From the IMG/VR virus record IMGVR_UViG_2713896787_000009: a stretch of 10,163 nt of DNA, one strand, 5' to 3'. Positions 850 to 6,269 of this stretch are shown piece by piece. Source of the stretch: a virus. Its lineage: Duplodnaviria > Heunggongvirae > Uroviricota > Caudoviricetes. The first letter of the stretch is position 1. The number at the start of each line of letters is the position of its first letter. Both the position numbers and the translations under genes were made by a program. Below the pieces are notes generated by a model. That model ran no database searches. It was not told the origin of the DNA and worked only from the letters and a program-made list of their open reading frames with translations.

Positions 850-1257
850 TTATTTATTTGCGCTTCTTTTGCGAGCTTTGAGTAGTTCTTCAAAAAGTTT
901 GTTGAAATTCTCAACTCGAGCACGCATCTCTGACAACAGAGCCTTTTGCTCTGACTCAGGCAGTGCGTCGAACAGTTGAAGCAACTCTTTTTGATCTTCT
1001 GTCAGATTGACTGGCTGATTATCTGGGATCGGTTCGCCTGGTTGCTTATCTTCATCTCCAAAAAGAAGCCAAGTCGGCGAGCACTGAAGCGCCTGGCTCA
1101 GTGCGAATAATCTCTTCCCCGCTGGCTGTGTTTCATCTCTTTCCCATTGAGAAATTGTTACGTGAGCCACTTTGACCAGCTTACCTAATGCGGCCTGAGA
1201 CAGTTTTAATTTTTTTCGCCTGTATAAGAGGCGAGCACCGAAGGTTTCGTTTTTCAT
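850..1257 (-). CDS. dicA: DicA-like prophage repressor (XRE-family helix-turn-helix, 135 aa)
   Basis: 135-aa ORF with an N-terminal HTH signature (LKLSQAALGKLVKVAHVTISQWER) and the C-terminal region typical of DicA-type repressors; divergent from a cro-like gene; minus-strand TAGAAT -10 (plus 1266-1271) ends 8 nt before the ATG, suggesting a near-leaderless pRM-like transcript. Confidence 0.8.
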   Translation of the reverse strand: MKNETFGARLLYRRKKLKLSQAALGKLVKVAHVTISQWERDETQPAGKRLFALSQALQCSPTWLLFGDEDKQPGEPIPDNQPVNLTEDQKELLQLFDALPESEQKALLSEMRARVENFNKLFEELLKARKRSANK

Positions 1258-1324
1258 ATTAGGTAATTCTAATTTTTCTTGACTTAGGTTTCTCTACGAT
1301 CTAGTTTCCTTAGGAAAATCTAAG
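1258..1324. promoter_or_regulatory. Divergent promoter/operator region with three phased dyads: O1 ATTAG-N6-CTAAT (1258-1273), O2 CTTAG-N6-CTACG (1283-1298), O3 CTTAG-N6-CTAAG (1309-1324)
   Basis: Three 16-bp dyads spaced 25 and 26 bp; rightward TTGACT (1279-1284) + 17 bp + TAGTTT (1302-1307); leftward -10 overlaps O1; layout mirrors lambda OR1-OR3. Confidence 0.55.
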
Positions 1325-1333
1325 GGGTTCGAT

Positions 1334-1560
1334 ATGTTGAAAATTGATGCTATAGCGTTTTTGGCAGCAAAACAAAGCTTGCCAATGTCGCAGGAGTTAG
1401 GCTGGCAAGCGTTGCTGCATGGGGGGAACTGGTTCCTGAAGGTCGCGCGATGCGCCTGCAAGAGGCATCCGGCGGGGAACTTCAGTACGACCCCAAAGTT
1501 TATGACGAATATCGTAAGGCAAAGCGGGCGGGGCGGTTGAACAATGAAAATCACCACTGA
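1334..1560 (+). pseudogene. Cro/DicC/YdaS-like regulator interrupted by a -1 frameshift in a G6 run (1421-1426)
   Basis: ATG 1334 with AAGGGG RBS; frame 1 stops at 1538-1540; adding one G restores a 75-codon ORF ending at TGA 1558-1560 with C-terminus LVPEGRAMRLQEASGGELQYDPKVYDEYRKAKRAG. Confidence 0.6.
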
Positions 1561-2095
1561 ACAGGTTTGTGAGGCTCTGGATACCTGGGTATGCCGACCA
1601 GGAATGACACAGGAGCAGGCGACGATATTAATCACGGAAGCATTCTGGGCTCTGAAAGAACGCCCGAACATCGATGTTCAACGCGTCACGTTTAATGATG
1701 GCGAGGTTGATCAACGGGCGCTGGGCGTTAACCGGGTGAAGATATTCGAACGCTGGAAAGCTATCGACACCAGAGATAAGCGTGACAAATTCACGGCGCT
1801 GATTCCGGCAATTATGGAGGCTATCCGGATCAGCGATTTCAGATTGTATTGTGAAATTACTGACGGAAAAAGCATTACGTACATGATCGCCGGGTTAAAC
1901 AAAGAATATGGCGATGTGGTGGAGTCCGGGCTGCTTTTTGCGGATCCAGTTGTTGTGGAACGTGAGACTGACGAGCTTATAGAAAAAGCTATTGCTTTCA
2001 AGCACGCGTATCGTCAGCAATACCAATATTACTTTGCAGATAAACAAATGTCTGCCAGGGGTTCGTATGAGTATCGATGCACTACGATGGGCTAA
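1544..2095 (+). CDS. YdaT-like protein (cII-position gene), 183 aa
   Basis: ATG 1544 overlaps the restored cro stop; sits between cro and the replication gene; the RW...LIPAI motif region resembles my recollection of YdaT-family proteins (unverified). Confidence 0.6.
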   Translation: MKITTEQVCEALDTWVCRPGMTQEQATILITEAFWALKERPNIDVQRVTFNDGEVDQRALGVNRVKIFERWKAIDTRDKRDKFTALIPAIMEAIRISDFRLYCEITDGKSITYMIAGLNKEYGDVVESGLLFADPVVVERETDELIEKAIAFKHAYRQQYQYYFADKQMSARGSYEYRCTTMG

Positions 2096-3107
2096 AAAGG
2101 TGAAAACCGGCAGTTCATCCAGTAAGTCAGTATTGACCTGGCTTGCTGATATGTGCGGTGCCGATTTGTGTGCATACCCGTCTGTATCTGCACTGGCAGA
2201 AGTAACGGAACTGAACAAAAAGACTGTGCAGGACAGCTTACGACACCTGATGGAGATTGGGTTAATTGTTGATACCGGTGAGAGAAAAGGCAGAACAAAG
2301 CAAATTGTGGTGTACCGACTTATCGGTGTAGAAGAAAGTGTTGCCGAGCCTGAATACACCCAAAAACGGGAGTCTTTAAAGGTGGGTAAAATTGGTGCTG
2401 TTAATAAAAACAGTACCGAAAATGGTTATGTTTCAGCACAAAACAGACCCAAAAACAGAACTCTTAGCTGCATGGAAAATAACCAAAGACACCCAAATTT
2501 TCCATCAAAGACACCCAAAAACGGATCACGGAACCCAAAGGAACCCAAAGATCTAAACCCCACACATAACGCACGCGAGAGTGCTCCGACCAGTGAGCAG
2601 GAAGTTTTGTCGTTACAGGCAGCCCCCCCTGTATTCCTGTATGGCCTGAGCGAACCCATCGGAAAATTCCCGATGAGCGATAGCTGGTATCCGTCACGGG
2701 ATTTTCGACGACGGGCTGCGTTGTGGGGGATGGCTTTGCCGGAGACAGAATTTACACCTGCTGAACTTGCCGCCTTCCGGGACTACTGGGCAGCGGAGGG
2801 GAAAGTGTTTACGCAGATTCAGTGGGAGCAGAAATTCGCCCGTCACGTAAATCACGTCAGGGCGCAGGTTAAACCAGTCAGCAAAGGGGTAAACCATGCA
2901 GCAGCACCAGGTGGCACCGCATCACGGGCAGTTCAGGAAATTCGGGCAGCACGTGAGCAGTGGGAACGTGAAAACGGATTTATCAGCGACGGAAACGGCC
3001 TGGAAGCTGTGGGAACTCATGGGGGTGGTTTATTCGAACCGCTGGATCCAGAAGAACGGGGCCGCACCTTCGAAGCTCTGGATTGCACAGATTGGCGCGA
3101 TGACTGA
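2067..3107 (+). CDS. Replication initiation protein (N-terminal HTH DNA-binding domain, C-terminal DnaT-like domain), O-analog
   Basis: ATG 2067 with AGGGG RBS 5 nt upstream (the in-frame ATG at 1992 lacks an RBS and lies inside the upstream gene); N-terminal HTH-like segment, low-complexity linker, C-terminal W/F-rich DnaT-like segment; 3' extent uncertain because of the 211-bp overlap with the next gene. Confidence 0.7.
   Translation: MSIDALRWAKKVKTGSSSSKSVLTWLADMCGADLCAYPSVSALAEVTELNKKTVQDSLRHLMEIGLIVDTGERKGRTKQIVVYRLIGVEESVAEPEYTQKRESLKVGKIGAVNKNSTENGYVSAQNRPKNRTLSCMENNQRHPNFPSKTPKNGSRNPKEPKDLNPTHNARESAPTSEQEVLSLQAAPPVFLYGLSEPIGKFPMSDSWYPSRDFRRRAALWGMALPETEFTPAELAAFRDYWAAEGKVFTQIQWEQKFARHVNHVRAQVKPVSKGVNHAAAPGGTASRAVQEIRAAREQWERENGFISDGNGLEAVGTHGGGLFEPLDPEERGRTFEALDCTDWRDD
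2443..2550. repeat. Iteron-like direct repeats (core ACCCAAA, 5 copies; exact 14-bp CAAAGACACCCAAA x2; tandem GAACCCAAAG x2); candidate replication origin
   Basis: Core starts at 2447, 2491, 2513, 2533, 2543 (spacings 44, 22, 20, 10); located in the interdomain linker of the initiator gene, next to an AT-rich stretch (2395-2442), as ori-lambda lies inside gene O. Confidence 0.45.
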
Positions 3108-3561
3108 GCAGCAAATCCGGCAGGTCTGCCGCCAGTGCATGGACCGCTGCCGGGCGGGTGAAACATGGCCTCCGGACCTGGCTGAGTTTGTGGCACTGAT
3201 TTCGAAAAGCGGAGCCAATCCATTCGGTCTGACGGTGGATGCTGTGATGGAGGAGTACCGCCGCTGGCGCAATGAGTCCTGGCGATACGACGGAAGTGAT
3301 AAGTACCCGTGGTCTCAGCCTGTGCTGTATCACATTTGCCTCGAGATGCGTTCAAAGGGGATTGAGCGCCAGATGACCGAAGGGGAATTAAAACGGCTTG
3401 CAGAACGGCAACTGACGAAATGGGCAAAGCATGTTAGTAACGGCCTGAGCGTTCCGCCAGTCCGGCGACAACTGGCGGCCCCCAAACGCCCGTCGGGGCC
3501 AACGCCAATTGAGTTGCTGAAACAGGAATATGAACGCCGGAAAGCGGCTGGTTTTGTTTGA
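2896..3561 (+). CDS. Lambda P-like replication protein (DnaB helicase loader)
   Basis: Translation resembles my recollection of lambda P across the central and C-terminal regions (FVA, YPW, ELKRLAERQL segments); ATG 2896 with AAAGGGG RBS immediately after an in-frame stop; alternative start ATG 3100 forms an ATGACTGA junction with the upstream stop. Confidence 0.75.
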   Translation: MQQHQVAPHHGQFRKFGQHVSSGNVKTDLSATETAWKLWELMGVVYSNRWIQKNGAAPSKLWIAQIGAMTEQQIRQVCRQCMDRCRAGETWPPDLAEFVALISKSGANPFGLTVDAVMEEYRRWRNESWRYDGSDKYPWSQPVLYHICLEMRSKGIERQMTEGELKRLAERQLTKWAKHVSNGLSVPPVRRQLAAPKRPSGPTPIELLKQEYERRKAAGFV

Positions 3562-3594
3562 GTTGAGAAGTGATTTTTTACCGGGAGGAAATTT

Positions 3595-4329
3595 ATGGAG
3601 ACTGTTTTTGACGCACTGAAAGCGATGGGAAAAGCCACGTCGGTAGAGCTGGCTGCGCGACTTGATATCAGTCGTGAAGAAGTACTGAACGAGCTGTGGG
3701 AACTGAAAAAGGCTGGCTTCGTTGATAAAAGAGTATACACCTGGCGTGTGGCTGATAACAACGTTCAGCAGGAACAGCCAGCGCCAGAAGAAACCACCAC
3801 GGCAACAGAAGCGAAAATCTCAGAGTGCGATTTAACCGCGACGATTGAACAACGCGGACCACAAACGGCGGATGAACTGGCTACGCTGTTCGGTACAACA
3901 TCCCGCAAAGTTGCTTCAACGCTGGCAATGGCAATCAGCAAAGGTCGTCTGATTCGCGTAAACCAGAACGGTAAAATTCGTTACTGCATACCAGGTGATA
4001 ATTTACCAGCAGAGCCGAAAGTTGAATCGGTAGCGGAAACCGATGGTAAAGCCTTTCCTCAGCCAGCCGGTGTTGCGTTACCGGTACAGAAAGATGCAAC
4101 ACAGGAAGATATTAAAACAGAAACTGTGGCGGACATTGTGCAGTCGCTGCCATCGTTTACTGCAACGCGAGAAGATGATTTGATTTTGCCATCGCTGCAT
4201 ATGGCAAATCGCGAACTGCGTAGGGCGAAGAATCATGTCCAGAAGTGGGAGCGAGTCTGCGCCGCGCTGCGGGAGCTGAACAAGCACCGGGATATGGTTG
4301 CCGGGATTTGTCGGAAGTCCGGGCAATGA
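3595..4329 (+). CDS. Conserved phage hypothetical protein with two tandem winged-helix-like segments and an acidic/Thr-rich linker
   Basis: ATG 3595 with GGAGG RBS; 244-aa ORF; internal duplication (residues ~5-50 vs ~85-125) with HTH-like pattern. Confidence 0.7.
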
Positions 4330-4996: not shown

Positions 4997-5024
4997 ATGT
5001 TGATTACAAAAATGTAATCAACAT
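4997..5024. promoter_or_regulatory. Perfect 12-bp inverted repeat with 4-bp spacer (ATGTTGATTACA-AAAA-TGTAATCAACAT) upstream of the PEB3/AcfC/Paa-like gene; candidate operator
   Basis: Exact dyad symmetry over 28 bp in the AT-rich upstream region that also holds TATAAT (5051-5056) and TTGACT (5070-5075). Confidence 0.4.
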
Positions 5025-5188
5025 GTAAGGTTTATACTCTTCAATATGCGTATAATTTTCCTTATTTTGTTGACTTTAAATAACAAGCTATGCACGAGGT
5101 AAAGTCGGATAAGTTTATCTGGATGTAATATATATTATTTGTAGTGTTTATAACTTTATTTCATGATAACCAATAAAAGGAGTTTTTT

Positions 5189-5947
5189 ATGAGGAACATA
5201 ATGGCAGGTTTTTTAATATTCCTGTCTTCTGCTGCTTATGCTGATATCAATCTGTATGGTCCTGGTGGCCCGCATACAGCCTTGCTTGATGCAGCCAAAC
5301 TTTATGCCGAAAAAACAGGTATTATAGTGAACGTTCATTACGGCCCACAGAACAAATGGAATGAAGATGCCAAAAAAAATGCAGATATCTTGTTTGGCGC
5401 ATCAGAACAATCTGCTCTGGCTATCATTCGGGACCATAAAGACAGCTTCAGTGAAAAAGATATTCAGCCTCTTTATCTGCGAAAAAGTATTTTACTGGTA
5501 AAGAAAGGTAATCCTAAAAATATCCGGAGTATTGACGACCTGACCAGACCTGGGATTGGCGTAATTGTTAATGATGGTGGTGGTACCAGTAATACATCAG
5601 GCACTGGCGTCTGGGAAGATATTGCCGGACGTAAAGGGAATATAGAAACTGTCGCCGCAATCCGAAAAAATATTATTTTATATGCGCCCAATAGCGGAAC
5701 TGCACGTAAGGCTCTTGAGAATCAGCCTGGAGCAGATGTCTGGATAACCTGGGCTGACTGGGCAGCCAGTAATCCAGAAATTGGTGATGTCGTGGAAATA
5801 GCGCCAGACTACGTGATATGGCGTGATATGAACATTACAGTACGTCAGGATGCAAATGATGAAACCCGTCGATTTGCAGAATGGCTACAAACCGATGAAG
5901 CGGCGCCTGCATTCAAAAAATATGGCTGGACCAGGAAAGGCACTTGA
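5189..5947 (+). CDS. paa: Secreted PEB3/AcfC/Paa-family protein (ModA-like periplasmic binding-protein fold), 252 aa
   Basis: ATG 5189 with AAGGAG RBS 6 nt upstream; signal peptide MRNIMAGFLIFLSSAAYA; motifs DINLYGPGGPHTAL, ADILFGAS, SNTSGTGVWEDI, WITWADW, FKKYGW; markedly low GC; own promoter region and terminator; no adjacent permease or ATPase genes. Confidence 0.65.
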   Translation: MRNIMAGFLIFLSSAAYADINLYGPGGPHTALLDAAKLYAEKTGIIVNVHYGPQNKWNEDAKKNADILFGASEQSALAIIRDHKDSFSEKDIQPLYLRKSILLVKKGNPKNIRSIDDLTRPGIGVIVNDGGGTSNTSGTGVWEDIAGRKGNIETVAAIRKNIILYAPNSGTARKALENQPGADVWITWADWAASNPEIGDVVEIAPDYVIWRDMNITVRQDANDETRRFAEWLQTDEAAPAFKKYGWTRKGT

Positions 5948-6189: not shown

Positions 6190-6269
6190 GCCCCACCCGA
6201 CTATAAATCGAAGTGAGGCCCCTATATGCTCGTCACATATAGATTGCCTCTTACGGACCGAAAGGTCAA
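6190..6269 (-). ncRNA. Putative Sok-like antisense RNA region opposite the mok start (boundaries approximate)
   Basis: Position expected from hok/sok biology; minus-strand -35-like TTGACC (plus 6264-6269); no clean -10 or terminator identified. Confidence 0.25.

Follow-up and report, generated by a model that had tools for sequence, protein, structure and literature searches.

The 10,163-nt stretch of DNA from virus record IMGVR_UViG_2713896787_000009 (Caudoviricetes; hereafter the window) is the immunity/replication/late-control segment of a lambdoid Escherichia coli prophage. We propose that positions 2355–2554, inside the part of its initiator gene (the analogue of lambda gene O) that encodes a disordered linker, are probably the replication origin of this prophage. 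The repeats found there are very probably initiator-binding sites (iterons) that mark the origin. They are under DNA-level rather than peptide-level constraint, travel with the N-terminal domain (N-domain) of the initiator as one module, and occupy the position that the iterons have in lambda. Binding, unwinding and origin activity are what we infer from this computational analysis.

The heptamer ACCCAAA occurs six times in the window against 1.55 expected, at 2358, 2447, 2491, 2513, 2533 and 2543. All copies are on the plus strand and within 192 nt (2358–2549), in a region whose top strand is strongly A- and C-rich, and no other repeat array of this kind was found in the window. The first-pass annotation of this DNA had correctly described five copies with spacings of 44, 22, 20 and 10, an exact 14-bp duplicate (CAAAGACACCCAAA, at 2484–2497 and 2506–2519), and a 10-bp tandem pair, which Tandem Repeats Finder (TRF) places at 2530–2550 (GGAACCCAAA, 2.1 copies). 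The start of the array at 2443, however, has to be moved to about 2355, as a further copy, at 2358 and with an extended match of 24 nt, is found 85 nt to the left of it. The view of the repeats as one array holds for copies 1–4, which are iterons (Table 1), but not for copies 5 and 6, the 10-bp pair, which form a separate class of element described below. Likewise, the roughly helical phase noted earlier exists in the window, where spacings of 89, 44 and 22 are near multiples of 11, but as a family property it is ruled out by the relatives' spacings of 18, 24, 26 and 33. Iteron 1 is conserved in nine genera, always 292 nt from the start codon. The two decayed relics align with intact CCCAAAAACGG / ACCGAAAACGG copies of relatives; iteron 3 aligns with their CCCAATTTTGG / CCGTTTTTCCC and resembles both TCCCAAAATTGGGA of Edwardsiella phage GF-2 and lambda iteron 3. 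Dyad symmetry of the window copies is partial, the left arm and the A-tract being well kept and the right arms weaker. The array region also uses the rare codons AGA and CCC.

The ACCCAAA copies begin at codon frames 0, 2, 1, 2, 1 and 2, and are accordingly read as TQK, (R/T/E)PK and (H/N)P(N/K). When the same 75-residue peptide was re-encoded with the window's own codon usage in 2000 trials, the mean number of copies was 0.42 and the observed six were never reached (0/2000); the highest multiplicity of any 7-mer, six in the window, had an expectation of 2.08. Permuting the region's own synonymous codons gave a count of six in 0.05% of trials. Exact k-mer counts alone separated the two levels of constraint in this test, and a loose 11-mer statistic (up to two mismatches) was discarded, being largely accounted for by the peptide alone. 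When the DNA of nine genera is aligned, conservation within the linker peaks at the last iteron, where CCCAAAAACGG is invariant. Together with its right border this iteron, CCCAAAWWYGGGAYMCRGAA, is read in three frames across phages: as PKNG(I/T/S)RN in the window, Kluyvera, Enterobacter, phiV10 and GF-2, as (P/T)QKRD(P/T)ES in Edwardsiella, Plesiomonas and Serratia, and as VPNLGHRT in Bcep176. Indeed, 24 nt are identical between a Kluyvera prophage (L003) and Edwardsiella phage EPP-1 and yet stand in different frames. Since identical DNA is translated in different frames, selection acts on the DNA, and the peptide follows. Two doubts had been raised in the first-pass annotation. That the repeats are explained by codon repetition is contradicted by the three frames and the re-encoding result; that homologues might keep the peptide and lose the nucleotides is the reverse of what was found, given that CCCAAAWWYGGGAYMCRGAA is conserved as DNA.

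A protein search with the N-terminal 165 residues retrieved 76 proteins. Their N-domain of ~88 residues is conserved, their linker is repetitive (PKNG, TENGT, QKR, PFFP), and their C-terminal domains are unrelated. DNA was read from ~20 lineages, comprising enterobacterial prophages (loci L003–L011), Edwardsiella phages EPP-1 and GF-2, phiV10, Vibrio phage Her, Acinetobacter AP22, Burkholderia Bcep176, EBPR podovirus 1, Moraxella Mcat8, several metagenomic viral contigs and a Yersinia prophage; for locus retrieval, a 16-sequence alignment was too diverse, and a closer 4-sequence alignment was used. In every relative examined, a repeat array directly follows the N-domain, and most share the near-palindromic core (T/A)CCC-AAAAAC-GGGA. 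With up to two mismatches, CCCAAAAACGG occurs 2–7 times per 321-nt linker in 17 loci (3–7 times in 16 of them; twice in AP22), always on the plus strand, and 0–5 times in the remaining 3–10 kb of each locus. The dyad symmetry is clear in the relatives, as in GTCCC-AAAAAC-GGGAC, ATCCC-AAAAAC-GGGAT and ATCCC-AAAATT-GGGAT. A wing of the form DTGER(K/R)G goes with CCC/GGG arms, and relatives with another wing have other dyad repeats at this position. These are GTACC-N6-GGTAC in L111 (wing EVERSQGGGNQ) and L113 (wing ATQKVPGKIT). Locus L013 (wing SRERAAGQKS; 33% identity) has five 23-bp units with a perfect GTCTC-N5-GAGAC palindrome at 2775–2924, followed by a short tandem, and shows the two-part design clearly, with another specificity. 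In Mcat8, too, the repeat unit is a different one, GGGGGTACAATTTTGCA.

The second part of this design is a short tandem with a period of 9–13 nt, which follows the last iteron in every lineage: AACCAGTCATAT × 3.4 in phiV10, GAACAGTAG × 3.8 in Bcep176, AGAACCAGTCATT × 2.5 in Her, GGAACAGGAA × 2.8 in the EBPR podovirus, GAACCAGGAAGA × 3.4 in L013 and TGAACCTATCAG × 2.5 in L113, with tandems of such periods at the same place also in Mcat8, GF-2 and L111. Over the 64 nt that come after the last iteron, 19 loci (not all of them independent) together have GAAC 36 times on the plus strand against 4.7 expected, and once on the minus strand. A codon-repeat origin of the tandem is excluded because periods of 10 and 13 are not divisible by 3. 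The GAAC element is retained among initiators that differ in iterons and C-terminal domains, and its position corresponds to that of the AT-rich tract in lambda; copies 5 and 6 of the window's array are assigned to this GAAC(C) element as a second, strand-specific class. AGATCT, which contains GATC, is conserved in the window, in L001, L003–5, L009–11 and L115, in Her, and in ydaU of Rac-SA53. As a side observation, AGATCT is followed in the Edwardsiella/Plesiomonas/Serratia/Yersinia group (L001 3490–3520, L006–L010, L115) by a conserved C5/G5 palindrome, CCCCCTAGCCCCCAAGGGGGAGGGG, which is absent in the window.

By blastn, EPP-1 matches positions 2–483 of the initiator gene and Rac-SA53 ydaU matches 481–1041. 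The homology to ydaU starts at window position 2554, the N-terminal half of ydaU being unrelated, and the exchangeable C-terminal module (2554–3107) shares 89% DNA identity with it. Judged from these alignments, the initiator gene is a mosaic exactly at the end of the array. In ORF62 of GF-2, a lambda-O C-domain (62% identity, E 2e-67) follows a window-type N-domain (35% identity, E 2e-16) and an array. The repeats of this array line up with the iterons annotated in lambda, and homology to lambda sets in again directly after the AT-rich tract of lambda. The 2554 junction and the GF-2 chimera therefore make the N-domain plus array one exchangeable unit, as in lambda. The GF-2 chimera also lends positional support to the lambda analogy drawn in the first-pass annotation, namely that origin iterons sit inside gene O.

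The same annotation had placed an AT-rich stretch just upstream of the repeats. Such a tract exists, with a GC content of 0.33–0.38 at 2400–2500 against about 0.55 downstream, but it lies inside the array, between copies 1 and 2. The least stable duplex of the gene (2370–2440) falls here, where two ancestral iterons decayed.

Variation within E. coli was followed in 80 copies representing 44 haplotypes; the viral-contig scan was saturated with near-identical E. coli copies, which were used for this polymorphism analysis only. There is zero polymorphism at 2340–2384 (iteron 1) and at 2476–2551 (iterons 3 and 4 and the tandem). Variation within the array is limited to 2385–2475, mostly in the relic tract (2380–2427). 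At position 2457, 35 of the 44 haplotypes have G, which makes iteron 2 a perfect CCCAAAAACGG, while the window has the minority A (CCCAAAAACAG). The C-terminal half (2554–3107) is many times more polymorphic than the N-terminal half, which, together with its 89% identity to a ydaU with an unrelated N-terminus, indicates that recombination is probably frequent at the 2554 junction.

The initiator gene is 99.7% identical to that of a 'phage replication protein' of E. coli PPompW prophages, and its N-terminal half with the array was found in 908 of 5426 complete E. coli genomes (about 17%), including O157:H7 and O111 strains, where the copies are annotated merely as 'DnaT-like ssDNA-binding domain-containing protein'. 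For residues 1–88, AlphaFold2 gives a confident winged-helix model, with four helices and a β-hairpin at a predicted local distance difference test (pLDDT) score of 89–97, and Foldseek matched MarR, ArsR, PerR and TFE-alpha winged helices at E 1e-3 to 1e-2. The Pfam match to HTH_36 (PF13730) is weak (residues 36–67, 20.9 bits against a cut-off of 25); homologues of 40–66% identity have precomputed PF13730 assignments, as do the 76 homologues in which the N-domain is kept. A PDB sequence search with the N-domain profile gave nothing significant, and Pfam showed no match of the initiator to Phage_rep_O (PF04492) at E ≤ 0.01. We claim no homology between the N-domain and lambda O, as the profile comparison was non-significant, even though the hhalign alignment spanned the helix-turn-helix and the wing. 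An HHpred link between HTH_36 and lambda O has been reported by Brezellec et al. (PMC5509034); it was not reproduced in this analysis. The first-pass annotation had recognized the low-complexity linker, with the peptide KTPKNGSRNPKEPK, correctly, and AlphaFold2 predicts residues 105–164 to be disordered (pLDDT <50). The DnaT-like C-terminal domain and the lambda-P-like loader gene it had named are likewise borne out by Pfam. The array (2355–2554) thus stands between the winged helix and the DnaT-like domain, and the loader gene lies directly downstream, the two genes overlapping at 3100–3107 across the initiator stop codon. Many initiator copies among the database proteins (P0002, P0006, P0007, P0022 and P0076) are truncated or frameshifted inside the repeat region, P0022, for instance, reading TPKTGLLQQKRHPKRD; the A5–A6 and C3–C5 runs of the iterons appear prone to frameshift while the DNA motif stays.

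In the origin that we propose, one part would consist of four usable and two decayed iterons with the core (C)ACCC-AAAAAC-GG(G/A), a presumably degenerate form of the family's dyad-symmetric site NCCC-AAAAAC-GGGN, and the other of the short GAAC(C) tandem (GGAACCCAAA × 2) ending in AGATCT. Dimers of the N-terminal winged-helix domain would bind the iterons in an O-some-like complex of the lambda type, and the DNA would open nearby, at either the GAAC tandem or the internal AT-rich tract (2376–2440). The C-terminal DnaT-like half would then recruit the lambda-P-like protein carrying host DnaB. A more far-reaching idea, which we offer tentatively and consider possible rather than likely, is that the GAAC(C) tandem is a distinct sequence-specific element, maybe read as single-stranded DNA at opening or helicase loading. 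Combined with the CCC-A-tract-GGG iterons, it would then constitute a two-part intragenic origin that has not been described before. This origin would be common to a large HTH_36 initiator family, to which ~17% of complete E. coli genomes and a number of the non-lambda 'Eru' types of Shiga toxin (Stx) phages would contribute members.

Several points weigh against an origin at this place. The DNA that follows the iterons (2520–2560) has average duplex stability and is not AT-rich. The window's array is more degenerate than those of its relatives, with two relics and weak right arms in iterons 2–4, and the hhalign comparison of the N-domain with lambda O was not significant (E 0.027, probability 1.8%). 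Within the searchable full text, which excludes subscription literature, we found no experimental report of binding or origin activity for this initiator family and no description of these iterons or this origin (by motif, by iterons with phiV10/epsilon15, or by PF13730). Lastly, most of the relatives' copies stand in the same frame (PKNG) at distances divisible by 3, and because of this shared frame we hold that in-frame duplication contributes to the relatives' peptide repeat. The same fact, the disordered and repetitive nature of the encoded peptide, and the behaviour of the loose 11-mer statistic would suit the explanation that the repeats are a by-product of a low-complexity linker (PKNG/EPK codons) without DNA function. 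We regard this as highly improbable, since the exact 7-mer stands in three frames and was not regenerated by re-encoding (0.42 against 6; 0/2000), identical DNA is read as PKNGIRN, PQKRDPES and VPNLGHRT in homologues, and the tandem periods of 10 and 13 nt do not fit codons.

If the repeats do act as DNA, they might still be initiator sites for autoregulation or copy control, or simply mark a recombination junction, the true origin being elsewhere. In plasmids, iterons have a part in copy control too, the right end of the array coincides exactly with the mosaic junction and its conserved AGATCT, and a strongly AT-rich unwinding element does not adjoin it. Nevertheless, we consider this unlikely: the window is without another array of this kind, the GF-2 chimera makes the position equivalent to that of the functional iterons in lambda, each lineage has a second conserved element after its iterons, as an origin would have, and the domesticated protein DopC, no longer initiating, is reported to be iteron-free (PMC5509034). 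It is similarly improbable, in our view, that the segment is an origin by descent whose copy in the window has decayed and is non-functional in a defective prophage. Two of the six ancestral iteron positions are degenerate, the minority A at 2457 breaks the CGG arm of iteron 2, and in many database entries the protein is truncated or frameshifted inside the array; the open reading frame (ORF) here is nonetheless intact, the 44 haplotypes show no variation in iterons 1, 3 and 4 or in the tandem, and unwinding in lambda needs only the two iterons nearest the AT-rich tract (PMC7466680). An intragenic origin of the window's prophage therefore remains the reading that we prefer.

Table 1. Features of the proposed origin, the initiator gene and its neighbours (window coordinates).
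Feature	Position	Strand	Basis or remark
N-terminal winged-helix DNA-binding domain (aa 1–88), presumed iteron binder	2067..2330	+	AlphaFold2, Foldseek
Iteron 1, TACACCCAAAAACGGGAGT	2355..2373	+	read as TQKR
Two decayed iteron relics, AGGTGGGTAAAATTGGT (2380–2396) and CAGTACCGAAAATGGTT (2411–2427)	2380..2427	+	inside AT-rich tract
Iteron 2, CAGACCCAAAAACAGAACT	2444..2462	+	read as RPKNR
Iteron 3, GACACCCAAATTTTCCATC	2488..2506	+	A/T-symmetric type, read as HPNF
Iteron 4, GACACCCAAAAACGGATCA	2510..2528	+	right border CACGGAA; most conserved copy
Short tandem GGAACCCAAA × 2.1, GAAC(C) element	2530..2550	+	TRF; candidate unwinding or helicase-loading site
AGATCT at module junction	2549..2554	+	read as KDL or KRS; closes tandem element
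DnaT-like domain of C-terminal half	2667..2867	+	Pfam PF17948, E 9e-17, aa 201–267
Initiator gene (lambda-O analogue)	2067..3107	+	346 aa; ORF list and translation, Pfam
Lambda-P-like helicase-loader gene	3100..3561	+	Pfam PF06992 (Phage_lambda_P), E 4e-16
DicA-like repressor gene	850–1257	minus	
YdaT-like gene/ORF	1544–2095		
DUF1627 gene	right of lambda-P-like gene		

Around the initiator gene the window has the genes listed in Table 1 and, farther rightward, a solute-binding 'moron', DUF968, RusA, Q and four tRNA genes. The YdaT-like ORF overlaps the start of the initiator gene by 29 nt (2067–2095). No sigma-70-like promoter was found in a scan of 1200–3700, and two terminator-like sites were set aside as irrelevant. 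DnaA-box-like sites number 11 against 8.5 expected and do not cluster at the array, that is, they are not enriched. Just past the 3′ end of the DicA-like repressor gene, at 750–793, lies a 23-bp tandem repeat, AAGCTTCTTGTGTAGAAAAACCT × 1.9. The region 5000–5947 begins with the AT-richest and least stable DNA of the window (about 5000–5170), followed by an SBP_bac_11 solute-binding-protein gene, and looks like a moron insertion. A small Hok/RelF-like toxin ORF (MKQQKAMLIALIVICLTVIVTALVTRKDLCEV...) with one masked base inside occupies 6226–6438. The tRNA genes Met-CAT, Lys-TTT, Arg-TCT and Arg-TCG are found at 9569–10090, downstream of the Q antiterminator gene, interrupted by masked N runs.

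This replication module is common in E. coli, and the same record family includes Stx2a-converting phage regions. An iteron consensus with a defined origin position would allow origins to be annotated across the whole initiator family. Incompatibility or specificity groups would become predictable from the wing–iteron pair, and replication-dependent Stx production would be testable in these phages.

The closest known plan is the lambda origin, where iterons and an AT-rich tract lie in the middle of gene O, distal G residues are contacted, and the two proximal iterons suffice for unwinding (PMC7466680). In lambda and lambda-type Stx phages it comprises four 18–19-bp dyad-symmetric iterons plus the AT-rich tract. 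As in lambda, the proposed origin is part of the initiator gene and falls in the linker that separates a winged-helix N-domain from a loader-binding C-domain; four or more repeats stand on one strand, a P-type loader gene comes next, and the N-domain is exchanged together with the iterons as one module. The iterons themselves share a C-rich arm, an A-tract and a G-rich arm (TCCCTC-AAAAC-GAGGGA in lambda; CACCC-AAAAAC-GGGAG here). Unlike lambda O, the initiator has no Phage_rep_O match, no significant similarity to O and a DnaT-like instead of a lambda-O-type C-terminal domain; the arms are 3–5 bp rather than 6–7 bp, and a GAAC(C) tandem instead of an AT-rich tract follows the iterons, the AT-rich tract being internal to the array.

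The window, with its weak HTH_36 match, has the two-gene architecture of DopC/DopE in Cellvibrionales and Oceanospirillales, where the gene for an HTH_36 N-terminus and a DnaT C-terminal motif precedes a lambda-P-like one (Brezellec et al. 2017, PMC5509034). The gene for DopC is chromosomal and domesticated; it is reported without iteron-like sequences and not at the chromosomal origin (PMC5509034), whereas the prophage form described here has the array. This contrast also supports the idea that the array and initiator function are lost together. A Reinekea locus (L012) considered as an iteron-free DopC control was dropped, being phage-like and retaining motif peptides. Among phages, the initiators of the phiV10/epsilon15-like, GF-2/EPP-1, H20-like (Her), AP22 and Bcep176 groups have homologous N-domains (35–72% identity) and the array at the same position, and most share the CCCAAAAACGG core followed by the GAAC tandem. 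Their arrays are more regular than the window's (e.g., three perfect 24-bp units), and they have other C-terminal domains (Phg_2220_C, the lambda-O C-domain and others) and other loaders; the database records read for these phages hold no origin annotation. For several of the 'Eru' replication types of Stx phages, HTH_36 and YdaT proteins have been listed, with origins not mentioned (PMC8951638).

Iteron plasmid origins (RK2 oriV, pPS10, F and R6K, with 13-mer unwinding elements) resemble the present one in that direct repeats of initiator sites adjoin short tandems of about one helical turn. Those plasmids have their iterons outside rep, a Rep with two winged-helix domains and, usually, DnaA boxes. 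The present array is inside the initiator gene, the protein has one predicted winged helix, and DnaA boxes show no enrichment. DnaA-trios and the unwinding-element repeats bound by plasmid Rep proteins are comparable to the proposed reading of the GAAC(C) tandem on one strand. Taken together, these comparisons support the view that the plan is the known one of lambda's intragenic iteron origin, and that the proposed origin departs from lambda's in the initiator family, the iteron sequence, the C-terminal domain and the element beside the iterons.

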